Shown here piece after piece: positions 19,513 to 36,207 of a stretch of DNA of 64,000 bases. Each line of letters opens with the position of its first letter. Position 1 is the stretch's first letter. Location of the stretch: assembly GCF_014930455.1 (NCBI RefSeq), contig NZ_JAAIYO010000008.1, positions 224,367 through 288,366 on the forward strand, written 5' to 3'. The notes below the pieces were generated by a model, which searched no databases, was not told where the DNA came from, and saw only the letters and a list, made by a program, of their open reading frames with translations. Made by a program: the position numbers and the translations under genes. This DNA is from Corallococcus soli (GTDB lineage Bacteria; Myxococcota; Myxococcia; Myxococcales; Myxococcaceae).

Positions 19513-21195
19513 TCAGAGGTCGATATCGTGCTTCTGACAGTATTGTCGGACCTTGGGACGCTCCGTTGCCGGCACCCGGGTCCAATTGGCGTTCGTATTC
19601 GCCAGGTCGCCCTGCTGGCAGTACACGCGGGTGAGCAGCGAGTACGACGCGCCGGTGATCTTCGTGCGCTGGCTGCGGCGGATGTGAAGCAGGGCCTCTT
19701 CCAGTTTGCCCGCGTCCAGCGCCCGCTGCGCCGCCGCCAGGTCCTCGCGGACGTTGTCGGGCAGCTTCTCCGCGGACTGCGATGAGGCGGTCGACGGGGT
19801 CCGCGCCACCTTCGGCTTGACGTCGGTGGACGGCTCCCCGTCCGGCTTCTTGTCGGGGGACGGGTCGGCGTCCGGCGTGGGCGCCGTCGTCGTCGTGGTC
19901 TCCGTGGGTGTCACCGGCTTCTTCTGCTCCGGGGTCGGCGTCGGGACGTCGGCGGGCGGCGCGACGACCACCGCGGGCGGCAGGGTGACCACCGCGACCT
20001 GCTGGGGCGTCGTGCCCGCGCCGCGCCAGAAGAACGCGACGGTGAAGGCCGCGATGACGACGACACCCACGGCCACGCCCACCTGCCACGCGGGGCGGGC
20101 GCGGGGCACGGGCCGCGCGTCCAGCGACTCCGTCCGGGGGCCCGACGCGTCGACGGACGCCGGCCCGGAGGCGTCCTGCCCGGCGTGGGGGCGCATGCCC
20201 ACGGTGGGGATGTGCTCCTCGGACGGCAGGGAGGGCAGCCGGGGGATGGACGCGGGGGGCTGCGTCGTCGGGCGCGAGGGCTTCGACTCGGGCAGCGTCT
20301 GGAGCGGGCTGCCGGTCAGGTCCAGGATGAACGAGCCCACGTCCGGATACCGGTCCGCCGGCTGCTTGGCCATCGCGCGCTGGATGGCCGCGACCACGTG
20401 CGGGGGCGTGCCCGGCGCCAGCGACAGCAGGGGCGCGGGCTCCAGGTGGACGATCTGGTAGATGAGCTCCGCGATGTTGTCGCCGGAGTAGGGCGGCTGG
20501 CCGGCGATCATCTCGTAGACCATGCAGCCGAACGAGAAGAGGTCCGTCCTCGCGTCCACGTTGCTGTTGTGGCCCATGGCCTGCTCGGGCGCCATGTACT
20601 GCGGCGTCCCCATCAGCACCGAGTCCAGCGTCTGCACCGTGCGCGAGTCGATGAGCTTGGAGATGCCGAAGTCGAGCAGCTTCACGCGCTCGCTCACCAC
20701 GCCCCCCGCCTCCGTGGGGACCAGGAACACGTTGCCCGGCTTCAGGTCGCGGTGCACCACGCCCGCGCGGTGCGCCGCCTGGAGCGCCGCGCCCATCTGC
20801 CGGGAGATGGAGAAGACCTCCGCCAGGGGCAGCTGCTTCTGCTTGCGCAGCCGGCGCGACAGCCCCTCGCCGCGCAGGTACTCCATCACCATGAAGGGCG
20901 TGCCGTCCTCCAGGGTGTCGAAGTCCAGCACCTCCACGATGTTCGGGTGGCCCAGCCGCGAGGCGATCTCCGCCTCGCGCCGGAAGCGCACCGCCACCTC
21001 CGGCGACAGCGACTCGGCGCCGTGCAGCACCTTGATGGCCACCTGCTTGCCCGGCAGCCGCAGGTGGCGGGCGAGGAAGACCGCCCCCATCCCGCCCTTG
21101 CCCAGGACGGTGCCAATCTCATAGGTGGCGTTCAGGATCCGTCCCGTGGTGAGGGGCTCGGACTGGACGGAGGTGGGTTCGGTCGGCTTTTGCAT
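19513..21195 (-). CDS. Hanks-type Ser/Thr protein kinase with a Pro/Thr-rich linker, a transmembrane segment and a C-terminal TPR-like domain
   Basis: Kinase subdomains are present: GKGGMGAVFLA, AIKVL, HRDLKPGNV, DFGISK and APE. A hydrophobic transmembrane segment (VAVGVVVIAAFTVAFFW) follows the kinase. Confidence 0.85.
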   Translation of the reverse strand: MQKPTEPTSVQSEPLTTGRILNATYEIGTVLGKGGMGAVFLARHLRLPGKQVAIKVLHGAESLSPEVAVRFRREAEIASRLGHPNIVEVLDFDTLEDGTPFMVMEYLRGEGLSRRLRKQKQLPLAEVFSISRQMGAALQAAHRAGVVHRDLKPGNVFLVPTEAGGVVSERVKLLDFGISKLIDSRTVQTLDSVLMGTPQYMAPEQAMGHNSNVDARTDLFSFGCMVYEMIAGQPPYSGDNIAELIYQIVHLEPAPLLSLAPGTPPHVVAAIQRAMAKQPADRYPDVGSFILDLTGSPLQTLPESKPSRPTTQPPASIPRLPSLPSEEHIPTVGMRPHAGQDASGPASVDASGPRTESLDARPVPRARPAWQVGVAVGVVVIAAFTVAFFWRGAGTTPQQVAVVTLPPAVVVAPPADVPTPTPEQKKPVTPTETTTTTAPTPDADPSPDKKPDGEPSTDVKPKVARTPSTASSQSAEKLPDNVREDLAAAQRALDAGKLEEALLHIRRSQRTKITGASYSLLTRVYCQQGDLANTNANWTRVPATERPKVRQYCQKHDIDL

Positions 21196-21426
21196 CGGCG
21201 GTTCTTTTTCCTACTAAACCGGGCCGACATGATTGGAAAGCACCTGGGTCGGATCCTCCCCAGCAGGTCGGGGGCGCGCCTCCGGATTCACAGGTTCTGA
21301 GAGGACAAGCCGTTTTTTCTCGGGCGGCGCCACGAACGGGGTCCGCTCGGAGGCACGGGGCCTCATGAACGCCACGAGCCCCCTGGTGGCTCCAGGAGGC
21401 TCGTGGCGCGAACCGCGGGCGTCGTC

Positions 21427-22044
21427 CTACGGGGGGGGGATGGGCAGCAGCCGCGTCTGGAGGGCCTCTGCTTCCTGGATGTGGATCTGGACCTGCTGCC
21501 GCTGGGTCTGGAGCTCCTGGGCCATGGCCGGCAGGGTGACCTGGGGCGTCAGGAGGCTGTCGCCGATGAAGGCGGTGCGCGCGTGCGCGTTGAGCTGCGC
21601 GCTCATCAGCGCCAGGTCGAACGCGGCGCCCTGGGGTGCTTCGGGCCCCTGGAGGATCTCCATCATCTGCTGGACCTCCGCCTGCAACTGGAGGCTCAGC
21701 GGGCTGTCCTCCGGGGTGATGCCCTGGCTTTGCAGGAACGCATCCAGCCGCTGCCGCGCGGCCGTGTGCTCGGTGACCATGGCGGTGTTGAAGTCGCGCA
21801 CGGCGGGATCGGTGGCGAGCGGCGCGCCGAAGTTGCCGAGCATCACCTCGCCTTCATTCGCCACCTGCAGCACGCGGGCGATCTGCGCGTCGGTGAGCGT
21901 CAGCACCGTGCCGGCGTCCGCGACGGTCTGGAGTCCGGGCGGAGGATTGGTGTCCTTGTCATCGGCGTCGGCGCCGCACGCTGAGCCACCCAGCACCATC
22001 GCACCCGCCAGTACCGCACCCAGCCAATATCCTGCCAATCGCAT
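21427..22044 (-). CDS. DUF4142-like lipoprotein
   Basis: Lipobox LGGSAC. It carries an acidic D/E-rich segment and Q-rich helical repeats. Confidence 0.6.
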   Translation of the reverse strand: MRLAGYWLGAVLAGAMVLGGSACGADADDKDTNPPPGLQTVADAGTVLTLTDAQIARVLQVANEGEVMLGNFGAPLATDPAVRDFNTAMVTEHTAARQRLDAFLQSQGITPEDSPLSLQLQAEVQQMMEILQGPEAPQGAAFDLALMSAQLNAHARTAFIGDSLLTPQVTLPAMAQELQTQRQQVQIHIQEAEALQTRLLPIPPP

Positions 22045-22205
22045 GCGTGACGCTCCTTCTGAGGATTGAGCACGCAGGGTGGGGACCGCCTCGTGGAGTG
22101 ACCATCAGCGGCTCAGCCGATGCCACTGTGGCGCAGTCCACAGGCCGCCCCACGCAGCGCGCCCGTCCCGGGGCCGGCCGGCAGGTCGCCTGCCGCCAGC
22201 GAAGC

Positions 22206-22425
22206 GGTCCCGGGACGCGCGATTTTCCCGGCGACCCGGTGCGCCAACCCCTAGAGTCCTCCTTGATGAGTGCCCAAGCCGACACCCGCGCCCCGCTCGT
22301 CGCCCTGCTGCCGAAGCCTGGCGAGTCTTCTCTCGACGACCGGAGCACCTTCGAGCGGCTCCAGAACGGCATGCCGGAGCCGCTGGAGTCCTGCTTCGAG
22401 GTGAGCCACGGCCTCCTGCTCAACC
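22206..22425. repeat. Chimeric duplicate of the helicase gene promoter and 5' end, fused to an internal helicase segment
   Basis: 22206-22340 matches 24172-24306 (helicase upstream region plus its first 24 codons or so, about 135 bp, with roughly 6 mismatches). 22336-22425 matches 25487-25576 (an internal helicase segment, about 90 bp, 1 mismatch). The two pieces join at a shared acgac pentamer. The result is a 65-codon in-frame remnant ORF (ATG 22265, MSAQADTRAPLVALLPKPGESSLDDRSTFERLQNGMPEPLESCFEVSHGLLLN...) whose TGA (22458-22460) overlaps the toxin ATG (22457). Confidence 0.9.
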
Positions 22426-22456
22426 CTCCAGTGCGCCAAACCCTGGCAAGCTCGGA

Positions 22457-23167
22457 ATGAACTTCCGAACTTGCAGCGCACTCCGCCAGGCCGTTGTCGT
22501 TGCCGTCGCCGCAGTTGGGTGCGCCACCTCTCAGGAGGCGCCTGAGACCTACGCTTGGGCGCCTGTGCGCCCGCCCGCTGTGCCCGGCACGGGCCTCCCC
22601 ACTCGCGGGCAGCCAGGGCAGGCTCGCCCCCAGCCCCTGCCGCGAAGCCCGCACAAGCGCATGTTGCCGCCCACCCGGGAGCCGGGCCTTTGGGCTGGAG
22701 ACGCTCCTCGGGCCTCGCAGGAACCGGAGGCGAACTCCACACCGGAGAGGTCCCAAGCGAACAGGAACGACCCGCCTGCCCCGGTGACGGCGGAGCGCCG
22801 CTTGGAGTGCGACCCCCTCCCGGTGCCGCACGCGGGCGAGGATGCCTCGCATGACGCGTGCGCCGACACATTTCCGCCCAACCGTTACCCTGGAATGGAC
22901 GTGCGCGTGGGCGGTATGCGCTTTGATGCGCTGCAAGTCGGCGTGCGCGTGCTGTGGGAGATCAAGACCCACCGATTTGACACATACAATGCCTTCCTCC
23001 GGGAACGGACAATCCTGGAGCAAGTGCCGTTGCTGAAGGAAGAGCGCGACATCGCTGAGGCATGTGGCTATGGATTCGTTGTCGGGGTGAGCACCCAAGA
23101 GCACAAAGACGCGTTGCTCGACGAGGATATCTCCCTCAATGTTGTCGTCACGGGGTGCAAGCGATGA
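22457..23167 (+). CDS. Small lipoprotein toxin candidate (SitA-like) with a C-terminal PD-(D/E)xK restriction-endonuclease-fold-like domain
   Basis: N-terminal signal and lipobox: MNFRTCSALRQAVVVAVAAVGCATS, with Ala at +2. The C-terminus reads GMDVRVGGMRFDALQVGVRVLWEIKTHRFDTYNAF, which gives a D...E-x-K arrangement. The ORF-track N-terminal extension (from 22079) was rejected because it reads through the duplicated helicase fragment in a different frame. Confidence 0.6.
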   Translation: MNFRTCSALRQAVVVAVAAVGCATSQEAPETYAWAPVRPPAVPGTGLPTRGQPGQARPQPLPRSPHKRMLPPTREPGLWAGDAPRASQEPEANSTPERSQANRNDPPAPVTAERRLECDPLPVPHAGEDASHDACADTFPPNRYPGMDVRVGGMRFDALQVGVRVLWEIKTHRFDTYNAFLRERTILEQVPLLKEERDIAEACGYGFVVGVSTQEHKDALLDEDISLNVVVTGCKR

Positions 23168-23922
23168 CAAGGCAGAGAACCCTCATCCATATCGTCTTCG
23201 CGCCTGCGCTCGTGGGCGACGACGGTCGCACGCTCGCGGTCGTCCACGGAATCGAACGGGCGCTCTCTGGTGTGCGTTTGGAGTGGGAGCTATCTGAGGC
23301 GGGGCGGCCCATCGCGTTGGCGCGACGCGATGGGTGGCTCGCTGAAGCAGCGGTGCGCGGGGAGTTCCCGTTACTGTGCAACGGCGACGAGAGTTACCCG
23401 GTAACGGTTTATGGGTTGCGGACATCCGGGCGCCAATCGCCGGGCGGCCAGCCGTTGCTCGATGTCCACGCAAAGCTGCCGCTGGATGCGGTCGGCATCG
23501 CAGCGGCGGCGGAGATGCTGGAAGGCGTGGCGGAAGGCGCGCGAGCGTTTTGGGGACGCGTGTTGCCGGACGGAGTGGCTTCGGAGGTGGCGAAACAGTT
23601 TCGCCACTCGATGGAGCAGCCGCATGTACCGCCCCGGGGTCTCCCAGCGCTCAACCTTCCCAAGCACCTCCGCTCGCCAGAGATCCCCCATTACCTCGGG
23701 TGGCTGAACTACTGGTCGGCAGCCACCGCACAGAGCCTCGGGTTCCCGGACCCTGCCCGAGATGCGGACCTGCTTTCTCGGGCGCGGCGTACGGCCATGG
23801 GCGGGTGGGTGGTTCGGCTCACGGAGACGCCGCTGGATCTCGACAATCCCGCGCACCTTGAGGCGCTCGTGCGGGCGTACGAGCGTTTCCCGGAAATTGG
23901 CGGGCGCGTGACTCCGGGCTGA
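23164..23922 (+). CDS. Candidate cognate immunity protein
   Basis: ATG 23164 overlaps the toxin stop TGA 23165-23167 (an ATGA overlap). It is 252 aa and cytoplasmic, with no signal peptide. Confidence 0.55.
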   Translation: MTRQRTLIHIVFAPALVGDDGRTLAVVHGIERALSGVRLEWELSEAGRPIALARRDGWLAEAAVRGEFPLLCNGDESYPVTVYGLRTSGRQSPGGQPLLDVHAKLPLDAVGIAAAAEMLEGVAEGARAFWGRVLPDGVASEVAKQFRHSMEQPHVPPRGLPALNLPKHLRSPEIPHYLGWLNYWSAATAQSLGFPDPARDADLLSRARRTAMGGWVVRLTETPLDLDNPAHLEALVRAYERFPEIGGRVTPG

Positions 23923-24231
23923 GCTGAAGCTGTCCGACGGGCCGCCGAGTCCCCGCCGTGCGGGTTGGAGGCCGCAGGGCTCGTCTGGCTGGAGCCTCTC
24001 TGGAGGTGACAGACGTGCCCTGCCTGTCGCCGGAGCAGACCGGCAGGGTGCGCTGGAAGCGCCCGGCAGCGATTGAACCCCAGCGGGAGGGCCGCATTGC
24101 CCTGGGACTGTACGTCGCCCGGTGAGCGCGGACCTGGAACATCAGGGCGGTTGTCGCGTTCGAACAACTTGGGTCCGCAGGCGCGCGATTTTCCCGGCGA
24201 CCCGGGGCGCCAACCCCTAGAGTCCTCCTTG

Positions 24232-26793
24232 ATGAGTGCCCAAGCCGACACCCGCGCCCCGCTCGCCGCCCTGCTGCCGAAGCCCGGCGAGCCTCCTCTC
24301 GACGCCGATGAGATCCTCAACCGCTTCGTCGGCTACGTGGCCACCAACGGGCTGAGCCTGTACTCCGCCCAGGAGGAGGCCATCCTGGAGCTGCTGAGCG
24401 ACAAGCACCTGTTCCTCAAGACGCCCACGGGCTCCGGCAAGTCGCTGGTGGCCATGGCGCTGCACTTCAAGGCCATGGCCGAGGGCAAGGTGTCGTTCTA
24501 CACGTGCCCCATCAAGGCGCTGGTGAACGAGAAGTTCTTCCAGCTCTCCAAGGCCTTCGGCCCGGAGAACGTGGGCATGCTCACGGGCGACGCGAGCATC
24601 AACCGCGAGGCGCCCATCCTCTGCTGCACGGCGGAGATCCTGGCGAACCTGGCGCTGCGCGACGCGTCCGCGCGCGTGGACGCGGTGGTGATGGACGAGT
24701 TCCACTACTACTCCGACAAGGAGCGCGGCACGGCCTGGCAGATTCCGCTGCTGGCGCTGCCCAAGACGCAGTTCCTGCTGATGTCCGCGACGCTGGGCGA
24801 CACGCACATCATCGAGCAGAGCCTGGAGCAGCTCACCGGCCGCGAGGTGGCCACGGTGCGAAGCTCCGAGCGCCCCGTGCCGCTGGACTTCGACTACCGC
24901 GAGGCCGCACTGCACGAGACCATCCAGGACCTCATCGCGCGCGGGAAGTACCCCATCTACCTGGTGAACTTCACGCAGCGCGCCGCCGCCGAGCAGGCGC
25001 AAAACCTCATGTCGGTGGACTTCAACACCAAGGAGGAGAAGGAGGAACTGCGGCAGGCGCTGATGGACGCGCCCTTCGACACGCCCTACGGCAAGGACTT
25101 CCAGCGCTACCTGCGCCACGGCATCGGCATGCACCACGCCGGCCTGCTGCCCAAGTACCGGCTGCTGGTGGAGAAGCTGGCGCAGCAGGGCCTGCTCAAG
25201 GTCATCAGCGGCACGGACACGCTAGGCGTGGGCGTGAACATCCCCATCCGCACGGTGCTCTTCACGCAGCTGTTCAAGTTCAACGGCGAGAAGCTGACGA
25301 CGCTGAGCGTGCGCGACTTCAAGCAGATCTCCGGCCGCGCGGGCCGCAAGGGCTACGACACCGAAGGCAGCGTGGTGGCGCAGGCGCCCGAATACGTCGT
25401 GGAGAACATCAAGCAGGCGGCCAAGGAGGCCGCGGGCAAGAAGAAGACGCCCAAGGCGAAGCCGCCGCAGAAGGGCTTCGTGCAGTACGACCGGAGCACC
25501 TTCGAGCGGCTCCAGAACGGCATGCCGGAGCCGCTGGAGTCCCGCTTCGAGGTGAGCCACGGCCTCCTGCTCAACCTGCTCCAGAGCGACAAGACGGAGG
25601 GCAGCGGCGGCTACAAGCGGCTGGTGCAGTTGGTGCGCCGCTCGCACAGCTCCGAGTACACGAAGAAGAAGCTCCTGAAGGACGCGGCGATGTACTTCCG
25701 CACGCTGCGCGAGGCGGGCATCGTGCAGGTGGTGCAGTGGGAGGGCCGCTCCTCCACGGTGGAGGTGGCGGGCGAGCTGCAACGCGACTTCAGCCTCAAC
25801 CACACGCTGTCGCTGTACCTGCATGAGACGCTGGAGCTGTTGGACCCCGCGGTGGAGACGTACGCGCTGGACGTCGTCACGCTGGTGGAGTCCATCCTGG
25901 AGAACCCGGACGTGGTGCTGTACGCGCAGCTGCACCAGCTCAAGGGCGAGAAGATCCAGGAGATGAAGGCGCAGGGCATGGAGTACGACGACCGGATGGA
26001 GGAGCTGGAGAAGCTGGAGTGGCCCAAGCCCAACCGCGACTTCATCTACGGCACCTTCAACGCCTTCGCGCGCAAGCACCCGTGGGTGGGCGAGGAGAAC
26101 ATCCGGCCCAAGGCCATCGTGCGCGACATGTTCGAGCGCTTCATGTCCTTCCACGACTACGTGCGCGAGTACGGCCTGCAGCGCAGCGAGGGCGTGCTGC
26201 TGCGCTACGTGGGGGACGTCTACAAATCGCTGGCGCAGACGGTGCCGGAGAAGTTCCGCAACGAGGAGGTGGACGACATCATCGACCACCTCCGCGCGAC
26301 GCTGCGTCAGGTGGACTCCAGCCTCCTGGACGAGTGGGAGCGGATGAAGAACCCGGACGCGCCGCTGGAGGCGAAGCCGGTGGTGGACCTGAAGCCCAAG
26401 GAGCTCACCGAGGACCCGAAGGCCTTCGCCGCGCGCGTGCGCGAGGAGCTGCACCGGCTGCTGCGCGCCCTGGGCCAGCGCCGCTTCCTGGACGCGCTGG
26501 GCATGCTGGACAACGCCCTGGGCGAATGGACCGCGCCCAAGCTGGAGCAGGCCATGGCGCCGTACTTCGAGGAGCACAAGCTGGTGGTGCTCACGCCCCA
26601 GGCGCGCAAGCCGGCGAACACCCAGCTCAAGGAGGCCGGCACCCGGCAGTGGGAGGCCCAGCAGCGCATCATGGACCCGGAGGGCCATGGGGACTGGGTC
26701 ATCGACTGTGAGATCGACCTGCGCGGCCGCCGCATGGACGACGGCCCCATCCTGATGCTGCGCCGCATTGGCGGCATGAGCGCGTGGACCTGA
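24232..26793 (+). CDS. DEAD/DEAH-box (Ski2/Lhr-like) helicase with a long C-terminal DUF3516-like domain
   Basis: Walker A is TPTGSGKS, the DEAH-type box is VVMDEFHY, motif III is MSAT and motif VI is QISGRAGRKG. The start at ATG 24232 was chosen over the ORF-track start at 24073. Its promoter and 5' end are the source of the duplicate at 22206-22340. Confidence 0.9.
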   Translation: MSAQADTRAPLAALLPKPGEPPLDADEILNRFVGYVATNGLSLYSAQEEAILELLSDKHLFLKTPTGSGKSLVAMALHFKAMAEGKVSFYTCPIKALVNEKFFQLSKAFGPENVGMLTGDASINREAPILCCTAEILANLALRDASARVDAVVMDEFHYYSDKERGTAWQIPLLALPKTQFLLMSATLGDTHIIEQSLEQLTGREVATVRSSERPVPLDFDYREAALHETIQDLIARGKYPIYLVNFTQRAAAEQAQNLMSVDFNTKEEKEELRQALMDAPFDTPYGKDFQRYLRHGIGMHHAGLLPKYRLLVEKLAQQGLLKVISGTDTLGVGVNIPIRTVLFTQLFKFNGEKLTTLSVRDFKQISGRAGRKGYDTEGSVVAQAPEYVVENIKQAAKEAAGKKKTPKAKPPQKGFVQYDRSTFERLQNGMPEPLESRFEVSHGLLLNLLQSDKTEGSGGYKRLVQLVRRSHSSEYTKKKLLKDAAMYFRTLREAGIVQVVQWEGRSSTVEVAGELQRDFSLNHTLSLYLHETLELLDPAVETYALDVVTLVESILENPDVVLYAQLHQLKGEKIQEMKAQGMEYDDRMEELEKLEWPKPNRDFIYGTFNAFARKHPWVGEENIRPKAIVRDMFERFMSFHDYVREYGLQRSEGVLLRYVGDVYKSLAQTVPEKFRNEEVDDIIDHLRATLRQVDSSLLDEWERMKNPDAPLEAKPVVDLKPKELTEDPKAFAARVREELHRLLRALGQRRFLDALGMLDNALGEWTAPKLEQAMAPYFEEHKLVVLTPQARKPANTQLKEAGTRQWEAQQRIMDPEGHGDWVIDCEIDLRGRRMDDGPILMLRRIGGMSAWT

Positions 26794-26800
26794 CGGACGC

Positions 26801-27085
26801 TCAGCGCGGGGGCGGCCTGGAGTCCCGGGCCGCCGCGCGCACGGTGTCCGCCGCCGCGTCCACCTCCGCGAGGATGCGGCGCGCGTGGTGGAGCAGGGCT
26901 TCTCCGGTGGGCAGCAGCCGCATGCCCCGGGGGATGCGCTCGAACAGGGGCGCGCCCAGCTCATCCTCCAGCGCGAGGATGTGACGGCTGAGCGGCGGCT
27001 GGGTGAGGTGGAGCCGGAGCGCGGCCCGGCCCACGTGGCCCTCTTCCGCCACCGCGACGAAGGACTGGAGGTGCGTGATGCTCAC
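26801..27085 (-). pseudogene. Truncated LysR-family regulator (HTH domain only, 94 aa)
   Basis: The N-terminal LysR HTH is present (ITHLQSFVAVAEEGHVGRAALRLHLTQPPLSRHILALEDELGAPLFER). The protein terminates after about 94 aa, directly abutting the helicase stop, and the substrate-binding domain is absent. This looks like a remnant at the edge of the AT-rich island. Confidence 0.6.
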
Positions 27086-27117
27086 GCCCCCAGGTTAGCG
27101 CGGGACGTCCGGCAGGG

Positions 27118-29060
27118 CAAATAACCAAACGACTATGATTGAGGAGAAATGACAAGCGTCTTGCCTTGAGCAAGTTCAAATCTTTTCGCAGGTTTGAAAG
27201 CCTCACTTTTTCTGGAAGCCTGCCTGCACCCGGCCAAGGATCGAATATCTGAACTGAACCCACCAAATCCAAGGCTTCCTGCGGCAAAAAACTACTTGTC
27301 GGAGAGGGGATGGCAACCCATTGAACGGACCAAGATCCGCAATGTCACCAGCCCGGATTCGGCACGCCCTTCGCCTCTCCTAGATAGTGGCGCAAGCTCT
27401 ATGACTACTCCAGAATCACTGCATGCCAGTATTGTTGTCTCTGAGATATCCGTGCTGTTTGAGTTTCAGCAAACCGTCCAAACAATGCGCGCACAGCGGT
27501 GACGGCCTGTGTAGGAGGACCCCTCTGCCGGCGAAGCCCACCAAATTTTCTGACTAGAATAGCTTACGCATATAACTGGGCGGGCGAGTTCCAGTTAGTG
27601 AGGTCCGCGATCGCGTCAACTGCTGTTGCAGTGACACATGCGTGAGGTGTTTTCTGTTGTGCTCGGACTCGGTGTCTGCTTCCCTGATTTCAAATGTAGT
27701 CACATGGACAGCACCTATGTTTCTTCACCAGCGATCTTCATTCTGATGAATGCCTTCATTGCTGGATCTACAAAGGTTGTGTAGTTTTGAACCCTTTCGC
27801 CGCCCTCTCCGCGCTCAACATCTTTTAGCACAGGGCCATAGGTGGTCTCCTTTAATTGCCGTAGTGGACCCGACAAGGCAGTACTCGGGATGTCCTCTCC
27901 AAGCTGTTTTGTGATGCTGTCGCACAGTTGCTCCATGGTTACGTAGTCATTGTCCATTTCTGCCATTGCGCGCAAGATCTGCTTCCTGTATCTTTTTTGG
28001 CCGAATGTTTCGATGGCTTTTAGGTACAGGTCATCTAGTCGGCGCGCGCGCTTGTTGACGTAGGATGTGAGTGATGATTTGAAGTCATCCATAGAGGCGG
28101 TGCGTGGAGCCCGAGCAAATGCCTTCTCTGCTATTTCCAGGCAGAGGTACTGTACGAGCGACGGGGAGCCTGATGAGGTTTTGACGATCTTGTCGGCAAT
28201 TGATTTTTCTATATCTATCTTGAGATCGGTCATGCCTTTTTCGATGATGAATCGGGATTCTGCCGTGCTCATTGCTTTGAGTGGGATCTCTTGTAGTAGG
28301 CGATCAATTCCAGGGTCGCGCCGTACGAGCCGGCTTGCGTCTGATGAAGTGCCCAGAAGAATGATCCTGAAGTTTTTGCAGTTTTTGTTTGCGTATGTTT
28401 TTATGAGTAGCGTTATTTGCTCTACGAAGTCGGGTGTCGCCTTGTGTAGCTCGTCTAGCAGTAGGACCAGCTGGTGTTGCTCGCAGAGGTCGATGACCTT
28501 GGAGTCCGTGGGTGAACTTACGGCGAATTGGGCTTTCTGAAGTGCGGTCTCGCCGGCAGTGTTTGAATTTTCACCGGTCAAGGATGCTTTAAATGCCTTG
28601 AAGGGGATTTCTACGCCTCCGGTCACTTTGGTTGTGGCTGATTCTGTTTGCTGGGTTGTGATTTCCGTGGTGATTGTGTATCCGATTGTTTCAAGGCAGC
28701 GCTTTAGGATGTCGCTTACTGATTGTCCTGCGACGCTCTCGATGTTGACGAGGCGTTTCTGCTTTTCGGCGTCAAGGACGCAGCGCCGTGCCATTGATGT
28801 TTTCCCAACTCCATATTCGCCAAATACTAACGGTATCATTCCGCGGCGAAGGGCCTTTTGGAAGTCTTCTTCGGCTTCGCCACGCTTGGCGTACACGTTT
28901 GTTTGATCTAGCGGGAGTTGGCCTGGGCGGAAGACTTGATTTGGATCGAGCATGTGGAGCCAGTGCTTTCTTGATTCGTCTTGATGCTGATGAGTTGCCA
29001 GTTGACCTGAAGCTGCATTGATTATTGGTGGGCGTAGTGGTTTAGGACCGGTGCAGCCCG
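27118..29060. mobile_element. AT-rich foreign island of about 1.9 kb (horizontally acquired segment)
   Basis: There is an abrupt compositional shift from about 70% GC to roughly 45% GC, judged by eye, across 27118 to about 29060. The only convincing gene inside is the AAA+ ATPase, which uses A/T-ending codons. The 10-mer CTAGAATAGC occurs at 27555-27564 and 29068-29077, on either side of the ATPase gene, each followed 14-16 nt later by GGGCGGG. No integrase or transposase is present. Confidence 0.7.
27715..28953 (-). CDS. AAA+ / P-loop ATPase of foreign origin (ORC/archaeal-ATPase-like, family assignment tentative)
   Basis: Walker A is FGEYGVGKTSMARRC, Walker B is LVLLLDELHKAT and a sensor-like TSSG motif is present. 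412 aa. Its low-GC codon usage is unlike every other gene in the window. Confidence 0.8.
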   Translation of the reverse strand: MLDPNQVFRPGQLPLDQTNVYAKRGEAEEDFQKALRRGMIPLVFGEYGVGKTSMARRCVLDAEKQKRLVNIESVAGQSVSDILKRCLETIGYTITTEITTQQTESATTKVTGGVEIPFKAFKASLTGENSNTAGETALQKAQFAVSSPTDSKVIDLCEQHQLVLLLDELHKATPDFVEQITLLIKTYANKNCKNFRIILLGTSSDASRLVRRDPGIDRLLQEIPLKAMSTAESRFIIEKGMTDLKIDIEKSIADKIVKTSSGSPSLVQYLCLEIAEKAFARAPRTASMDDFKSSLTSYVNKRARRLDDLYLKAIETFGQKRYRKQILRAMAEMDNDYVTMEQLCDSITKQLGEDIPSTALSGPLRQLKETTYGPVLKDVERGEGGERVQNYTTFVDPAMKAFIRMKIAGEET

Positions 29061-29120
29061 GTCAGATGCTGCTTGTGATGCTAGAATAGCATTGGACGTT
29101 GCGAAGGGGCGGGTGCCACC

Positions 29121-29912
29121 TTGCCCGCCATGGGCATTCCACTCTTCAAGGGCACCGAGGTTGAACGGCTGCGCCTCGCGGGACTCGCGGCGGCCGGCAC
29201 GCTGGCGCACGTCGCCGGGAAGCTGACGCCGGGCGTGACGACGGCGGACATCGACGCGTGGGTGCGCGAGGACACGGCGCGCCGGGGCGGCACCCCCAGC
29301 CAACTGGGCTACAAGGGGTTTCCCGCCACGGTGTGCACCAGCCGCAACCACGTGGTGTGCCATGGCATCCCGCGCCGGGACGAACTCTTGAAATCCGGCG
29401 ACATCGTCAACGTGGACGTGACGACGTGCCTGGACGGCTTCCACGGCGACACGTCCGCCACGTTCCTCATTGGAGAGGTGTCCTCCGACGCGAAGCACGT
29501 CGTGGACGTGGCTCGACGGTGCCGGGACGCGGGCGTGGCGGTGGTACGGCACGGCGCGCGGCTGGGGGACATTGGCGCGGCGGTGATGGCGCTGGCGAAG
29601 GCGGAGGGGTGCAGCGTGGTGGAGGAGTTCGGGGGCCACGGCATCGGCCGGCAGATGCACGGCCCCCCGCATGTGTCCCACGTCGCGAAGGCCGGCACGG
29701 GCATCACGCTGCGCTCCGGGATGGTGCTCACCATCGAGCCCATGGTGAACCTGGGCCGCCCGGACATCCGGATGATGCCGGACGGGTGGACGGTGGTGAC
29801 GGCGGACGGCAGCCTGTCCGCCCAGTTCGAACACACGGTGCTCGTCACCCGGGACGGCTGCGAGGTGCTGACGCCGGGCGAGCTGGAGCTCCACATCCCT
29901 GGCGGGTGTTGA
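29121..29912 (+). CDS. map: Type I methionine aminopeptidase
   Basis: Metal-ligand residues appear in canonical order: DIVNVDVT, GHGIG, LTIEPM and FEHTVLVT. A TAGAAT -10-like hexamer lies about 45 bp upstream, at 29072-29077. Confidence 0.9.
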   Translation: MPAMGIPLFKGTEVERLRLAGLAAAGTLAHVAGKLTPGVTTADIDAWVREDTARRGGTPSQLGYKGFPATVCTSRNHVVCHGIPRRDELLKSGDIVNVDVTTCLDGFHGDTSATFLIGEVSSDAKHVVDVARRCRDAGVAVVRHGARLGDIGAAVMALAKAEGCSVVEEFGGHGIGRQMHGPPHVSHVAKAGTGITLRSGMVLTIEPMVNLGRPDIRMMPDGWTVVTADGSLSAQFEHTVLVTRDGCEVLTPGELELHIPGGC

Positions 29913-29997
29913 GAAGGGGGCGCTTGCGTTTGCCTGCCCGGTCGCGGTTCGGGCGGTTCTCATTGGCAGCGTCGGGGCCGGTGATAATTTGCCGCCC

Positions 29998-31014
29998 ATG
30001 AAGAAGATCCTGGTCGCGCTCCTCGTGCTCATCGTCCTGGCGGTCGCGGGCGTGGGCGGGGCGTTCTGGTACATGCAGAAGGCCGTCACGACGCCCCACG
30101 CCTCGGCGGAGGCAACCCCGAAGGAGTTCGTGGTGAAGAAGGGCGCGTCGGCGCGCTCGCTGGGCCAGCAGCTGGAAGCCCAGGGCTTCCTCGACGACGC
30201 CCGCGTCTGGCGCTTCCACCTGTGGCGCAAAGGCAGCCTCAACGTGAAGGCGGGCCGCTTCATGCTGAGCCCCACCGCGTCGGTGGAGCAGCTGGCCACC
30301 GCGCTGGAAGGCGCCCCGCTGCCGGAGGACGTGCCCTTCGTGATGATTGAAGGCTGGCGCCTGCGCGACACCGACCAGGTGCTCGCCGCGCAGGGGCTCA
30401 TCAAGCCGGGGGAGTACATCGCCGCGGCCAGCCGCCCGGAGCGCTTCACCGCGCCGTTCCCGCTGCCCACGCGCGGGCTGGAGGGCTACCTGTACCCGGA
30501 GACCTACGGCATCGTCGTGGAGGGCTTCCGCGTGGAAGCCTTCATCCAGCGGCAGCTGGACACCTTCCGCGCCCGCTTCTACGACGCGCACCGGGAGGAG
30601 ATCGCCAAGAGCGGCCGGTCGCTGCACGACATCATCGTGATGGCCTCCATGCTGGAGCGCGAGGAGCCCATGCCCTCGCAGCGCGCGCTGGTCGCCGGCA
30701 TCCTCTGGAAGCGCGTGGACAAGGGCTTCGCCCTGGGCGTGGACGCGACGAGCCGCTACGAGCTGGCGGAGTGGAATGATCGCAAGGCGTTCCTCAAGAA
30801 GCTGCGTGACAAGTCCGACCCGTGGAACTCGCGCTCCCGCCTGGGCCTGCCGCCGGGCCCCATTGGCGCGCCGACGGTGGACTCGCTCGTCGCCGCGCTG
30901 CGGCCGGTGAAGAGCGACTTCTGGTACTACCTGCACGACGCGCAGAAGATCCTGCGCCCCTCGCGCAACGCGCAGGAACACGAAGCGCTCCGGGCCAAGT
31001 ACAACGTGTACTGA
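29998..31014 (+). CDS. mltG: Endolytic murein transglycosylase MltG (YceG-like)
   Basis: N-terminal transmembrane anchor MKKILVALLVLIVLAVAGVGGAFWY. The YceG-like core (GYLYPETY) and the catalytic region match MltG. Confidence 0.85.
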   Translation: MKKILVALLVLIVLAVAGVGGAFWYMQKAVTTPHASAEATPKEFVVKKGASARSLGQQLEAQGFLDDARVWRFHLWRKGSLNVKAGRFMLSPTASVEQLATALEGAPLPEDVPFVMIEGWRLRDTDQVLAAQGLIKPGEYIAAASRPERFTAPFPLPTRGLEGYLYPETYGIVVEGFRVEAFIQRQLDTFRARFYDAHREEIAKSGRSLHDIIVMASMLEREEPMPSQRALVAGILWKRVDKGFALGVDATSRYELAEWNDRKAFLKKLRDKSDPWNSRSRLGLPPGPIGAPTVDSLVAALRPVKSDFWYYLHDAQKILRPSRNAQEHEALRAKYNVY

Positions 31015-31023
31015 GCCCGCGCG

Positions 31024-32718
31024 ATGACCACCGCCCCTCCGGATTCGCATCCTCCCGCCGCCCCACCGTCCACCGACGTGGAGGCCCTGCGACGGGAGGT
31101 GGCCACGCTGCGCGAGGAGTCCTCGCGGCTGCGGCGGATGCTCGACACGGCGGCGCGGATCGCCTGGTCGCATGACGTCCGCGCGGGCGGGGGCGAGCCA
31201 GTGGCGCCGGCCTGGCAGGCCTTCACCGGGCAGTCCCTGGAGGCGTTCGGGAACCAGGGCTGGCTCACGGTCCTGCACCCGGACGACCGCGCGGGGGCGC
31301 TCGCGTCCTGGGCGGACGCCGTCGCCGCGAAGCGGTCCTTCTCCACGCGCTACCGCGTGCGCCGCGCGGACGGCGTCTACGTGTGGATGCTCGCGAAGGG
31401 CACGCCGGTGCTGGGGCTGGACGGCGAGGTGCAGGAGTGGGTGGGCACCTGTTCGGACATCCAGGACCAGTGCCTCCGCGAGGAGCGGGCCGCGTTCCTG
31501 GCCAGGGCCGGGGAGCTGTTCTCGTCGTCGCTGGACGCGGCCGCCACGCTGGCGACGCTCGCGAACCTGTCGGTGTCGGCGCACGCGGACTGGTGCCTCG
31601 TGGACCTGCTGCACGAGGATGGCCACTTCGAGCGCTCCCTGGTGGTGACGGCGGATCCCGCCCAGCTGCCGCTCGCGACGATCGTGCGGAGCCTGTCGCC
31701 CGTTCCTCGCGACCAGCCCGTCTATCCGCCCTCGGTGGCGCTGACGACGGGCCGCTCCACCCTGGTGCCGGAGGTCACGGCGCCGCTGCTGGAGGCGGTG
31801 GCGCAGGACGCGAACCACCTGGCGACGATGCACCAGGTGGGGATGCGCTCGCTGCTCACGGTGCCGCTGATGGCCCGGGGACACATCCTGGGCGCGCTGA
31901 CGTTCATCATCACCAAGTCCGGTCGCCACTATGGCGACGAGGACCTCCAGTTCGCGCAGGAACTGGCGAACCTGGCGGCCCTGGCCGTGGACAACGCGCG
32001 GCTGCTCCAGGGCGCGCGTGACGCCATCCGCCTGCGGGACGAATTCCTGTCCGTCGCCAGCCACGAGCTGAAGACGCCGCTGACGCCGCTCAGCCTGAAG
32101 CTCCAGGTGCTCTCGCGCGCGGTGAAGGCGCACCCGGACTCGCCGCTGGCGCCGGTGATTGAAGCCCACGTGGAGACGGGCCACCGGCAGGTGCGCCGGC
32201 TGACGGAGCTGATGAACGACCTGCTGGACGTGTCGCGCATCAGCGCCGGCACCTTCCGGTTGCAGCGCGAGGCCATGGACGTCGCCGCCCTGGTGCGCGA
32301 GGTGTCCGCGCGGTTCGCGCCGCGCTTCGCCCTGGAGCACTGTCCCTTCACGGTGGACGCCCCGGAGTCGGTGCCGGGCTGCTTCGACAAACCGCGGCTG
32401 GCCCAGGTGCTGGATCACCTCCTGGACAACGCCCTCAAGTACGGGGCGGGCACCCCGGTGTCCCTGACGCTCACGGCGGACGGCGCGGCGGCGAGGATCC
32501 GCGTGCGCGACGGTGGCATCGGCATCGCGCCCGAGCAGCGCTCGCGCCTCTTCGAGCGCTACGGCCGCGCGGTGTCCGAGCGCCACTACGGCGGCCTGGG
32601 CCTGGGCCTCTACCTCACCCGCACCATCGTGGAGGCCGAGGGCGGCCGGGTGTCCCTGGAGAGCAGGCCCGGCGAGGGCGCGGAGTTCGAGGTGATGCTG
32701 CCGCTCCAGCAGGCCTGA
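31024..32718 (+). CDS. PAS-GAF sensor histidine kinase
   Basis: A PAS domain (RIAWSHDVRAGG...WLTVLHPDD), a GAF domain, a HisKA domain (ASHELKTPLT) and an HATPase_c domain (DGGIGIAPE, GGLGLGLYL). Confidence 0.85.
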   Translation: MTTAPPDSHPPAAPPSTDVEALRREVATLREESSRLRRMLDTAARIAWSHDVRAGGGEPVAPAWQAFTGQSLEAFGNQGWLTVLHPDDRAGALASWADAVAAKRSFSTRYRVRRADGVYVWMLAKGTPVLGLDGEVQEWVGTCSDIQDQCLREERAAFLARAGELFSSSLDAAATLATLANLSVSAHADWCLVDLLHEDGHFERSLVVTADPAQLPLATIVRSLSPVPRDQPVYPPSVALTTGRSTLVPEVTAPLLEAVAQDANHLATMHQVGMRSLLTVPLMARGHILGALTFIITKSGRHYGDEDLQFAQELANLAALAVDNARLLQGARDAIRLRDEFLSVASHELKTPLTPLSLKLQVLSRAVKAHPDSPLAPVIEAHVETGHRQVRRLTELMNDLLDVSRISAGTFRLQREAMDVAALVREVSARFAPRFALEHCPFTVDAPESVPGCFDKPRLAQVLDHLLDNALKYGAGTPVSLTLTADGAAARIRVRDGGIGIAPEQRSRLFERYGRAVSERHYGGLGLGLYLTRTIVEAEGGRVSLESRPGEGAEFEVMLPLQQA

Positions 32719-32732
32719 GAGGGCCGCGGGGC

Positions 32733-33698
32733 CTACGACGGCTCGGGCTCCGGCGCCTTCTTGAACATCTCCGCGAGGATGCGCTCCGCCGCGTCCGCGA
32801 GCAGGTCCCGGGCCATGCGCGTCTCCTCGCCGAAGATGCCGCTGGATGTCCGCGCGTCCAGGACGTGCGTCGCGAGCAGCGAGAACGCGGCCGCCTCGTC
32901 GAACGTGGCCTCCGACGACAGGACGCGCTTGCCCGGGTGCTGGCTCTCCTCGTGGAAGCGGCCCTCCCAGTGCTCTCCCAGGGTGAGGGTGAAGTACTGC
33001 GTCGCCACGTTGCCGGGCCGCGACATGTGCGAGGCGGCGACCACCGCCCGGAGCTGGCCGCGCTCGTCCGGCGTCATCTGGCGCTTCCACGCCTCCACGG
33101 AGGCGTGCATGGTCTCAATCTGGTCCCTCGCCGCGTCCTCCGCGTTCTTCAGCAGGTCCGGCACCTGGGCGTGGATGAACGTGGCCAGGTCCTCCCGCGC
33201 CACGCGGCCCGCGCGGAGCACGTCGTCCACGAGCGCGAGCGAGGCGTCCAGCACGCGGTGCTGCCGGCCCAGGGCCTCGGCCGGAAGTCCCCGCGCCTCG
33301 AAGCCGTCGCGCGAGGCGGTGATGAGCCCGCGCAGGGTGCGAAGGCGGACGCGGGTGTCCTCATCCAGCGCCTCCGGCTGCTGCGCCAGCAGGACGTAGA
33401 GCGCGAGCGGGACGTGGGTGACGACCTTGTACGCGTGGTAGCGCCGCGTGCGCGCGGGGGCCTCGAAGCGCTGGCCTCCCTTGCGCAGGATGAGCACGTC
33501 GTCGATCTGCGCGATGACCGGCCCCATGCGCGACAGCACCGCGTCGCGGCGCGCGGCGTACGCGTCCCGGAACGCCTGGTTGAGCACGGAGAGCGGATCC
33601 GCGGGCTCCAGCGCCACGGCGCGCGCGACCTCGGAGGGCGGTTCGGGGGGAGGGGAGGGGGAGGCGGGATCCATGGGGCACTCGGCCATGGCGCGCAC
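32733..33698 (-). CDS. Hypothetical protein
   Basis: 321-aa ORF convergent with the histidine kinase. No recognisable motif was found. Its composition and codon usage are genome-typical. Confidence 0.5.
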   Translation of the reverse strand: MRAMAECPMDPASPSPPPEPPSEVARAVALEPADPLSVLNQAFRDAYAARRDAVLSRMGPVIAQIDDVLILRKGGQRFEAPARTRRYHAYKVVTHVPLALYVLLAQQPEALDEDTRVRLRTLRGLITASRDGFEARGLPAEALGRQHRVLDASLALVDDVLRAGRVAREDLATFIHAQVPDLLKNAEDAARDQIETMHASVEAWKRQMTPDERGQLRAVVAASHMSRPGNVATQYFTLTLGEHWEGRFHEESQHPGKRVLSSEATFDEAAAFSLLATHVLDARTSSGIFGEETRMARDLLADAAERILAEMFKKAPEPEPS

Positions 33699-33861
33699 GC
33701 TAGCGGCCCCGGGCTTCCCTTCCGTGGGGACCTCCGCGCGGGTGTCGGGATTCCTGCAACCGCGCGCCGCGCCCCGTCCGTGATGCGACGAAGGCCGGCC
33801 CCGCGACGACGCGGGACCGGCCTCCGGGTTCAGCGGTTCAGCGCTCCAACCGGTGACGGCT

Positions 33862-36207
33862 TCAGTCGACCGGGCGGACCTGGACCTGCATGACGGTCCC
33901 GGCCTTGTTCTCGCTCAGGACCTCGATGATGGTGCCCGTCTTCGGGACCTTCACGCCGGCGTACGGCTGCGTGGCGGACCAGAACTCGTTCAGGTCGTTG
34001 AACACCGGCACCGCGGGCTGCGAGGGGTACTCGCTGCGCGGGAAGCCGTTGGGCTTGAGCGACAGCGGGAAGCTGGGCTGCAGGCCGAACGTCGCGTCGT
34101 GCGTCTGCACGCGGCCGGACCAGTAGCGGCCGTCGCTGCGCTGCAGGGGCTGCGGGCGCGAGTCGATGGGCAGGATGCGGCCCTCACCCGGGTGCACGGA
34201 CACGCGGTTGTCGGGCACGGACGTGTCCCAGTAGGTGATGAGCAGGCCGGGGTTGTACGAATAGCGCTCGGCGTAGTCGCCGAGGCCGTCCGCGCTGAAG
34301 CCGTAGTTGTACGGCCCCGTCTCCAGGCCCGCGTCATAGCCGCGGAACTGCCGCCACTCGGCGATGTAGTAGTTGTCGTAGAACGTCTGGTTGCCGTCGT
34401 TCAGGAAGAACGTGGCCTGATCCCAGTACTTGTCGCCGTTCTCCGCGTCGTCGCCGAAGACGTACTTGTTCTTCGCCCAGAGCTGGAAGCCGTCCACCAG
34501 GAAGCCGCGGCCGAACTCCGCGCCGTCCGTCTTGTAGCGGATCTTCAGCGTGACCTTCTTGCCCGCGTGGGCGGACAGGTCGAACGACAGCGGCACCCAG
34601 CCGTCGGACAGGCCGGTGATGCCGTTGCCCAGGTTGTTGCCCCACGGGTTCGTGGTGCGGCTGACGGGGCTGGGCAGGTTGACGAACGGGCCGTCCTCCA
34701 CCGCGAGCGCGACGTAGGCGTAGTCCCAGTCCTCCTCGATGTCGAACCACGTGGAGAACGTGAACGTGATGGGCGTCTTGTTCGGCAGCTTCACCGTCTT
34801 GACGAGCACGCGGTCCAGGTTGTTGGCCGCGCCGCCCTGCCAGGAGAACTGCCCTTCGATGGGGGGCGTCGTGACCTGCGGGCGGGGCTTCGTGGGCAGG
34901 TTCACCACCAGCGCCTGCTTCGCGTTCTTGGACGTCACGCCCGAGGGGCCCAGCTTGTGGTACGAGTACAGGCCGTGCGTCGTGGTGGCGTGGTCCAGCC
35001 AGCCCAGCTGCAGCTTGTCCCAGGCGAAGAAGTCACCCGGCCGGCTGCCGATGTCCGTGGTGCCGTCGTTCAGGTACGAGCCCGAGGACATGATGCTCCA
35101 GAAGCCCGTCCCGTTGTCCGCCGCGTTCGTCGTGTCGTAGTGGTCCGGCAGGCCCAGGTCGTGGCCGTACTCGTGCGCGAACACGCCCAGTCCGCCGTTC
35201 TCCGGCTGGATGGTGTAGTCGCCCACCCACTTGTCCACGTTCGGCGCGAAGCGGGTGCCGCCGTTCGGGTTGTACGCGGGGCCGGGGCCGTCCGCGCTCA
35301 GGCCCGTGCTGTAGGCGAACCAGCGGTGGCTCCAGATGGCGTTGGGGCCCTGCTCGCCGCCGCCCGTCTCCTCGCCCACGCCCGCGTGGACGATCTGGAA
35401 GTGGTCGATGTAGCCGTCCGGCTCGTCGAAGTTGCCGTCGCCGTCGTGGTCATACCGGTCCCACGTGTCGAACGTGTCCAGGTACGCCTTGATCTCCGCG
35501 GGCGTCTTGCCGGCGGCCACCTGGTCCTGCGTCCACACCTTGATGGCGTCGCTGATGAGCGGCCACACGGAGTTGGAGCAGCTGGAGGAGCCGCACAGGT
35601 TGTTGCCGTAGCGCGCGGAGTTGTACGGCACGCGCACCCACTCGGACACCGCGCCGTTGACGGTGTAGCGGCCCGACGACGCGGCCTTGTAGAAGTTCGC
35701 CACCGAGTCCGCGCCCGGCGTCGAGTCGAAGTAGAGCCGCTCGTAGTGCGCGCGGTCGTAGTCCGGCTGCCAGATGGTGGTGTTGTCCACCGTCCGGTCC
35801 GGCTGCGGAATCACGTTGTGCAGCGGCCCGGGCACGTCACCACCGGGGTTCGTGACGGGGTTGCCGAACACCGGGTGGATCTGCGTCCCGTACTCCACCA
35901 GGATGACGAAGATGCGGTCCGTGCGCTCCAGCTCCAGCTCCACGAACTTGCCGTTGCCCAGCTTGTGCACCCGGCCCGCCTGAGCGCTGCCTTCAATGCG
36001 CTCCTTCAGGGCCTGGGCCTTGAGCTCCTTCTGCTGCTCGCCCAACCGGTGCGGCAGGTCGTCGGAAACGTCCACGGCCTGCTTGCGCAGGGACGTGGAC
36101 GGCGGCGCGATGTCGGGTTGCGGCTTCTCGTACCACGCGCGCTCCGCGTACGCCGACGGGGCGATCGCGAGCAGGCTCCAGGCAAGCCATGACGGGGGTT
36201 TCCGCAT
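33862..36207 (-). CDS. Secreted M6-family metalloprotease (immune-inhibitor-A/InhA-like)
   Basis: Signal peptide MRKPPSWLAWSLLAIAPSAYAE, with the start at 36207. The zinc site is HEYGHDLGLPDHYD, an HExxH followed by a downstream D/H. It is a large, about 780-aa, multi-domain exoprotease. Confidence 0.85.
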   Translation of the reverse strand: MRKPPSWLAWSLLAIAPSAYAERAWYEKPQPDIAPPSTSLRKQAVDVSDDLPHRLGEQQKELKAQALKERIEGSAQAGRVHKLGNGKFVELELERTDRIFVILVEYGTQIHPVFGNPVTNPGGDVPGPLHNVIPQPDRTVDNTTIWQPDYDRAHYERLYFDSTPGADSVANFYKAASSGRYTVNGAVSEWVRVPYNSARYGNNLCGSSSCSNSVWPLISDAIKVWTQDQVAAGKTPAEIKAYLDTFDTWDRYDHDGDGNFDEPDGYIDHFQIVHAGVGEETGGGEQGPNAIWSHRWFAYSTGLSADGPGPAYNPNGGTRFAPNVDKWVGDYTIQPENGGLGVFAHEYGHDLGLPDHYDTTNAADNGTGFWSIMSSGSYLNDGTTDIGSRPGDFFAWDKLQLGWLDHATTTHGLYSYHKLGPSGVTSKNAKQALVVNLPTKPRPQVTTPPIEGQFSWQGGAANNLDRVLVKTVKLPNKTPITFTFSTWFDIEEDWDYAYVALAVEDGPFVNLPSPVSRTTNPWGNNLGNGITGLSDGWVPLSFDLSAHAGKKVTLKIRYKTDGAEFGRGFLVDGFQLWAKNKYVFGDDAENGDKYWDQATFFLNDGNQTFYDNYYIAEWRQFRGYDAGLETGPYNYGFSADGLGDYAERYSYNPGLLITYWDTSVPDNRVSVHPGEGRILPIDSRPQPLQRSDGRYWSGRVQTHDATFGLQPSFPLSLKPNGFPRSEYPSQPAVPVFNDLNEFWSATQPYAGVKVPKTGTIIEVLSENKAGTVMQVQVRPVD

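Follow-up and report, generated by a model that had tools for sequence, protein, structure and literature searches.

A Foreign Islet between a LysR-Type Reading Frame and map

The window analyzed here is a stretch of 64,000 nt from the myxobacterium Corallococcus soli (assembly GCF_014930455.1, contig NZ_JAAIYO010000008.1, positions 224,367–288,366, forward strand). Between a short open reading frame (ORF) with a LysR-type helix-turn-helix (HTH) domain and the map gene, it contains a foreign islet of ~1.97 kb. The islet carries a single gene, which encodes an ATPase of 412 aa. The neighbors of the islet, namely the lysR fragment, map, and a helicase gene, are native to the genus, and no BREX genes are present nearby.

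The islet is conspicuous in its composition. Along the window, the GC content falls from ~0.70–0.75 to ~0.47–0.53 across ~27100 to ~29080. The islet as a whole (27108–29074) has a GC content of 0.509, and the remaining window has 0.710. This corresponds to z = −8.0 relative to 582 equal-sized windows elsewhere in the same stretch, the lowest of which reached 0.627. The GC content at third codon positions is 0.557 in the ATPase ORF and 0.92–0.97 in map, the DUF3516 helicase gene, and the lysR fragment.

The site was compared with four other Corallococcus species, which came from searching one genome per species for the neighboring helicase. All four (C. sicarius, C. aberystwythensis, C. carmarthensis, and C. 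sp. RDP092CA) have the empty site. The blastn alignments of the window to these genomes end at 27102–27107 and restart at 29075–29077, and only 22–28 bp lie between the two alignment ends in the island-free genomes. The right edge of the islet is accordingly placed at 29073–29076, and the left edge is uncertain within 27108–27120. The islet took the place of a short, GC-rich spacer and lies in the ~70 bp between the divergent starts of the LysR-type HTH ORF (GTG at 27085, minus strand) and map (ATG at 29130, plus strand). Because the empty site is found in four Corallococcus species, the islet is a true insertion of horizontally acquired DNA, and its foreign origin is demonstrated. A second record of the islet is 100% identical over 5 kb and probably comes from the same strain.

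A preliminary description, made from the sequence alone, had proposed an AT-rich foreign segment with AT-biased codons, one convincing gene for a 412-aa P-loop ATPase with the motifs GEYGVGKTS and LLLDELH, and non-coding flanks of roughly 600 and 110 bp. These points were borne out. Both motifs and the intact ORF can be seen, and the flanks measure 607 bp (3′) and 121 bp (5′). The empty site that had been expected between LysR and map in relatives was found, and the opposite situation, in which the islet would occur throughout Corallococcus with native codon usage, was checked and is not the case. The statement that every other gene is about 70% GC is not entirely correct, since there is a second patch with a GC content of 0.57 at ~11000–12000.

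The two non-coding flanks were inspected for further content. Neither contains a credible ORF, a tRNA, an Rfam match at E ≤ 1, or an unusual fold, and the folding of the 607-bp tail gives z = +0.9. A non-coding RNA in the flanks was therefore dropped as a candidate. The ORFs of the tail have no match in Pfam, PADLOC, NCBIfam, or PHROG, and tblastx and blastn comparisons with 14 homologous loci revealed nothing similar to the tail in their flanks. The tail was also considered as the site of a partner, effector, or decayed gene, but this was dropped, since its stop-to-stop frames look non-protein and lack homology.

The ATPase and Its Predicted Fold

The ATPase gene is intact. Its product is 100% identical to WP_193428720/CAM3869327, aligns over its full length with 31 homologs, and retains all 67 residues that are invariant among them. 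In the Walker A motif, G45, E46, V49, G50, K51, and T52 are invariant, and in the C-terminal winged helix, the same applies to R323, K324, L360, S361, G362, and N390. The region between the Walker motifs behaves differently. The Thr/Ala-rich insert at residues 96–144 has the lowest conservation in the protein, with a mean majority fraction of 0.52 versus 0.63–0.82 elsewhere.

In Pfam, AAA_22 matched at 1.6e-8 and KAP_NTPase was slightly over its cut-off, while AAA_16, Arch_ATPase, and TniB remained below theirs. The nSTAND1 profile scored 29.8 bits against a cut-off of 27.1, and this match covers only profile positions 12–238 of 379. The protein does not have the multidomain architecture of STAND NTPases, with C-terminal sensor repeats and/or an N-terminal effector: it is 412 aa long with neither repeats nor an effector, and its full-length relatives are nearly all 400–430 aa. 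At the level of sequence, no relative of the ATPase with a solved structure was found in the PDB.

The AlphaFold2 (AF2) model provides more information (mean predicted local distance difference test score, pLDDT, 83.7; predicted template modeling score, pTM, 0.78). It consists of an AAA+ base, a helical lid, and a C-terminal winged helix. The top Foldseek matches were 1fnn, 2v1u, 2qby, 2qen, and 2fna, and the best structural matches, to Cdc6/Orc1 and Arch_ATPase chains, span 266–288 residues; the alignment to Cdc6/Orc1 chains includes the winged helix. The variable insert lies where initiator-clade proteins have their DNA-contacting, initiator-specific motif. It is the least confidently modeled region, a beta-hairpin with disordered loops, with pLDDT <50 at residues 98–115 and 128–138. 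ORC/Cdc6-type ATPases carry an arginine finger before strand 5 (PMC12839542). The invariant R218, in the motif DPGIDR, stands immediately before strand 5 (residues 220–224) of the model and is a candidate for this finger. According to its predicted structure, the protein is a stand-alone ORC/Cdc6-type (initiator-clade) AAA+ ATPase with a C-terminal winged helix.

A Family Carried by Mobile Elements

The homologs of the ATPase are full-length proteins of ~415 aa that are 46–57% identical and occur in Acidovorax, Caldimonas, Hydrogenophaga, Comamonas, Ramlibacter, Pseudomonas, and a planctomycete. A profile search against 1.8 billion representatives (at 50% identity) returned 65 matches at E ≤ 1e-30 and 1131 at E ≤ 1e-10. 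Those of full length almost all measure 400–430 aa, so no effector or sensor domain is fused to them. PHROG 6841, a group of unknown function, matches the ATPase over its full length (7e-32), and comparison with a viral fold library yielded nothing beyond generic clamp-loader/AAA+ matches. The GC content of the gene (0.43–0.55) was lower than that of the surrounding genome (0.55–0.73) in all hosts that were examined. There is no conserved neighbor gene across the homologous loci.

Carriage as an integron cassette was observed in three independent contexts. In Caldimonas thermodepolymerans (loci L001 and L002), the ATPase gene lies directly behind aadA1 and a classical aadA attC. The aadA1 gene of L001 scores 591 bits, over the AadA1 cut-off, and the ATPase cassette is closed by an attC of its own (72 nt, GCCTAAC...GTTAGGC), with an R″ that overlaps the stop codon. 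The metagenome loci L096/L097 and L100 have the same cassette layout with other attC sites. The bottom strands of the attC sites in all three contexts fold with z = −5 to −11. The chromosomal aadA1 cassette and attC of C. thermodepolymerans (5095–5944 of L001, CP110415.1), which are uncalled in the gene table of the locus, adjoin a TrfA fragment and a DDE transposase, and the region looks like what is left of a mobile integron or of an IncP-type plasmid.

Other members are found in further mobile settings. In locus L091, a Zot/CoatB filamentous prophage has the gene immediately after its XRE-type repressor, and an integrase island of P. aeruginosa has the same repressor–ATPase module. In an island of M. 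otitidis, the gene adjoins a ParE/Phd pair. A conserved small upstream gene was considered and dropped, since the XRE-type ORF is common only to the Pf-like elements L003 and L091 and is not family-wide. In Acidovorax, Hydrogenophaga, Tundrisphaera, and C. soli, the gene forms lone islets of 1.8–2 kb between native genes. The family thus appears, by its sequences and their surroundings, as a widespread, self-contained, single-gene unit that travels as cargo of mobile elements.

Two side observations concern individual lone islets. In Hydrogenophaga sp. MI9 (4818–7438 of L090), as in the window (27108–29912), the islet adjoins a native gene of 263 aa of the Peptidase_M24/map-like type (47% identical). 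This arrangement occurs in two of ~20 distinct loci with a differing relative orientation and is possibly a coincidence. In Tundrisphaera sp. TA3 (7308–7398 of L007), the ATPase homolog is followed at a short distance downstream by three copies of a GGCAAAAGGGGTCA-type repeat, of which two are identical 30-mers.

Possible Function and Alternative Explanations

The explanation that we favor combines a recent foreign insertion with a single-gene, mobile ORC/Cdc6-type ATPase that acts as an exclusion or defense factor; taken as a whole, it has about an even chance of being correct. A foreign fragment was inserted recently between the LysR-type HTH ORF and map, probably by illegitimate recombination, and the simplest reading is that a linear fragment was captured at a break. 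The encoded ATPase would assemble on DNA in an ATP-dependent manner through its winged helix and variable insert. In this DNA-bound form, it may interfere with the replication or establishment of incoming phages or other mobile DNA and could thereby serve as a single-gene exclusion or defense factor.

Such a role is tentatively rated as the most likely function of the ATPase, at somewhat under an even chance, because of a profile match, the carriage of the family as integron cassettes and prophage cargo, and recent work on integrons. The only direct link to defense is the profile of the PADLOC candidate PDC-S59, which matches the window ATPase at E 1.2e-14 (52 bits) and is matched weakly by all 31 aligned family members, with a best E of 1.9e-19. 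The carriage on mobile elements is indirect support. Integrons are now described as defense libraries. In the report by Kieffer et al. (10.1101/2024.07.02.601719), 43 of 129 mobile-integron cassettes of unknown function, about a third, gave phage resistance. A more specific and more speculative version, which we regard as doubtful, is that a stand-alone, effector-less, bacterial ORC/Cdc6-like ATPase is itself an anti-phage or anti-plasmid immunity protein that is spread as an integron cassette and prophage moron. Its ATP-dependent assembly on invader DNA would mimic or block a replication initiator, with the hypervariable insert as the specificity element.

A number of observations weigh against the favored explanation. 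As for the insertion, no target-site duplication was found at the islet junctions, no integrase or transposase is encoded among the ORFs at 24000–32000, no tRNA integration site lies within 20000–36000, and no attC is present in the 607-bp tail or near the window copy. As for expression, no consensus promoter for the ATPase gene was found on the minus strand in the window. As for defense, the protein has no recognizable effector domain, and the PDC-S59 match is partial, covering positions 18–299 of 428 (~66%). No paper in the literature mentions PDC-S59, and PADLOC gave no match for ten neighbors in four homologous loci, where no sign of an association with defense islands was thus seen. The family is also nearly absent from collections of invaders: sequenced phages and plasmids yielded one weak, remote match in each collection, and IMG/VR yielded one contig. 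A literature search on nSTAND1 or Cdc6-like integron cassettes returned nothing specific.

Two alternatives compete with an exclusion or defense role, and both are considered unlikely. In the first, the ATPase serves the elements that carry it, either as an ORC/Cdc6-like replication initiator or loader or by regulating the lysogeny or maintenance of filamentous prophages and small integrative elements, and the C. soli copy is a stranded relic. The closest solved structures are indeed replication initiators and DNA-filament ATPases (Cdc6/Orc1, MuB, TnsC), and the gene lies directly behind the XRE-type repressor of a Pf-like element in L091 and L003–L006. However, promoterless integron cassettes and lone islets amid housekeeping genes have no replicon to serve, yet the gene stays intact and highly conserved in them. 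Moreover, its flanks are not conserved, and iterons or repeated origin-like elements were not seen beside the gene in the window or in most loci.

The second alternative, to which we assign the same low probability, is that of a silent or neutral passenger. A random foreign fragment would have been caught at a chromosome break, and it would be functionless in C. soli but not yet decayed. The composition without amelioration, the ~600 bp of orphan non-coding DNA that came along, and the lack of a detected promoter agree with this, as do the absence of the islet from the four other Corallococcus species and the probable same-strain origin of its sole second instance (L095). On the other hand, the ORF is undamaged and has retained all invariant residues, and the recurrence of the gene as a lone islet in unrelated bacteria argues that selection favors its acquisition. 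The passenger explanation is limited to the C. soli copy and is compatible with a function at the family level.

A third alternative, which we consider very improbable, is a mobile unit that is bounded by imperfect direct repeats (CTAGAATAGC ... GGGCGGG) and possibly represents half of a two-gene defense system whose effector was lost: the composite of CTAGAATAGC with GGGCGGG 14–16 nt later does occur twice (27554–27584 and 29081–29113) and was reproduced in only 1 of 2000 shuffles, albeit after a post hoc choice, but the right CTAGAATAGC copy belongs to native DNA conserved in island-free relatives, the left copy lies 446 bp inside the islet, other lone-gene loci show no comparable flanking repeats except for attC sites, and the family has no conserved partner gene.

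The details of this repeat are as follows. The preliminary description had correctly noted a 10-mer on both sides of the gene, although its second coordinate was 13 off (Table 1). At the position of the right copy, island-free Corallococcus genomes read CCAGAACAGC or CTGGAACAGC and then the same ATTGGACG. The shared 10-mer is at chance level: 293 of 2000 shuffled islets had a 10-mer in common with the native flanks, and the region contains an average number of 10-mer repeat pairs. As one copy is native and the other is internal, they are neither flanking repeats nor a target duplication, and the interpretation as imperfect flanking repeats was given up. The idea of a lost effector partner is not supported either: the cassette form holds the ATPase ORF alone, so the ORF is self-sufficient. 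The description had further stated that the mobilization mechanism is not visible. This remains true for the window copy, but at the family level, mobilization is visible as integron cassette recombination and prophage carriage. For the window copy itself, no sign of an integron-cassette origin was found. Its junctions (GCATC|ACAAG plus a GC-rich left edge) have neither an attC nor the G|TT core, and it is located outside any integron.

For the C. soli genome itself, a recent foreign islet is an ordinary finding. It is nevertheless a clean case of a myxobacterium that has acquired a single gene horizontally, and sister species show the empty site. The wider interest lies in a large family of uniform single-domain architecture that has been taken up repeatedly by integrons, filamentous prophages, and chromosomal islets. 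Of the new facts, the most useful is that integrons have captured the gene as a cassette repeatedly, and because of this the family is well suited to a phage-challenge screen. If the family does protect against phages or plasmids, an effector-less, initiator-like protein would be added to the single-gene immune systems, and another role would be assigned to integron cassettes of “unknown function”.

Neighboring Genes and Other Features of the Window

The coordinates of the islet, its gene, and the 10-mer copies are collected in Table 1.

Table 1. Positions of the islet and associated features in the 64,000-nt window.
Feature	Positions	Strand	Remarks
Foreign islet	27108–29074	none	~1.97 kb; GC 0.51; from blastn edges and GC z
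3′ non-coding tail	27108–27714	minus	607 bp; GC 0.52
10-mer CTAGAATAGC, internal copy	27554–27563	plus	followed by GGGCGGG at 27578–27584
Intact ATPase gene	27715–28953	minus	412 aa; sole gene and only long ORF of the islet
C-terminal winged-helix domain	27772–27990	minus	residues 322–394; three helices and a beta-hairpin wing in the AF2 model
Walker B LLLDELH	28444–28464	minus	residues 164–170; D167, E168, and H170 invariant in 31 homologs
Variable Thr/Ala-rich insert	28522–28668	minus	residues 96–144; between Walker A and Walker B
Walker A GEYGVGKTS	28795–28821	minus	residues 45–53; read from the sequence
5′ leader of the ATPase gene within the islet	28954–29074	minus	121 bp
10-mer CTAGAATAGC, second copy	29081–29090	plus	native DNA outside the islet; overlaps TGCTAGAAT

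The LysR-type ORF next to the islet encodes only the HTH part (94 aa, 26801–27085, minus strand). The preliminary description had called it a decayed gene. C. sicarius, which has no islet, has an ORF of equal length at the corresponding position (10581–10865 of L008). Therefore, its shortness is old and unrelated to the islet, and decay caused by the insertion is ruled out. Judging from this comparison, the ORF is either a conserved short ORF or an old truncation and not a case of recent decay.

On the other side of the islet, the region upstream of map differs in sequence from that of the relatives. TGCTAGAAT (29079–29087) is a perfect extended −10 element 43 nt upstream of the map ATG, and the four island-free species have TGCCAGAAC or TGCTGGAAC instead. 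This element may have arisen as a promoter that compensates for the insertion, which split the upstream region of the essential map gene. In the same native DNA, the right GGGCGGG and the CCCGCC at the start of map make up the stem of a small hairpin.

Two other places in the window have a lower GC content. The second patch of 0.57 (10484–12374, minus strand) contains a 323-aa gene of the TsiV family (“Type VI immunity for VRR-NUC”, PF11876, 1e-42). On its upstream side, it is overlapped by an ORF of 308 aa without a Pfam match. Together, these are probably a toxin/immunity pair. A short dip to 0.57 is located at 22900–23200, upstream of the DUF3516 helicase gene.

Comparison with Known Systems

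The ATPase can be compared with several known groups of proteins. The nearest in structure are the archaeal Cdc6/Orc1 proteins and the Arch_ATPases (1fnn, 2v1u, 2qby, 1w5s; PAB2304, 2qen; SSO1545, 2fna), although the identity is only 13–16%. Cdc6/Orc1 proteins have a helical initiator-specific motif after strand 2, whereas the C. soli ATPase has the variable, low-pLDDT beta-hairpin and disordered insert there. In addition, unlike its archaeal counterparts, the ATPase is bacterial, is found on mobile elements, and does not adjoin an origin.

A further group is that of the transposition ATPases MuB, TnsC, and TniB. The matches of the ATPase to the hidden Markov models (HMMs) of these families are all below the threshold, with TniB at 14.4 bits against a cut-off of 22.4, and these proteins do not have the extra C-terminal winged helix in the arrangement of the ATPase. 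With no transposase at 24000–32000 and no transposase or TnsB/TniA-type gene beside the gene in most loci, an identity as such a protein was rejected.

BrxD of type 2 BREX/Pgl systems is similar in that it is a stand-alone ORC/Cdc6-clade ATPase of ~430 aa. Its arginine finger before strand 5 (PMC12839542) has a candidate counterpart in R218, and the BrxD HMM gives weak N-terminal matches to 21 of 31 family members. However, the window ATPase scores 15.4 bits with the NCBIfam BrxD model, for which the cut-off is 350. BrxD is tightly paired with the helicase BrxHI, whereas the ATPase family has no partner. Given this score and the lack of a BREX neighborhood, the ATPase is not a BrxD.

The phage-resistance integron cassettes (BRiCs; 10.1101/2024.07.02.601719) resemble the relatives of the ATPase, which are likewise single-ORF cassettes with a canonical attC. 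In the accessible part of that report, the tested cassettes do not include the ATPase family by name, and the C. soli copy differs in that it has no attC and lies outside an integron.

PDC-S59, a “phage defence candidate” in PADLOC, is of similar length (428-position profile) and is likewise a single-gene unit. The PDC-S59 match is weaker in the more distant relatives of the ATPase, and because of this, the ATPase family is placed, on profile comparison, as a sister branch to PDC-S59 and not in the same family. The family is already catalogued but uncharacterized, and the C. soli gene is a further member of it, not a new kind of system.

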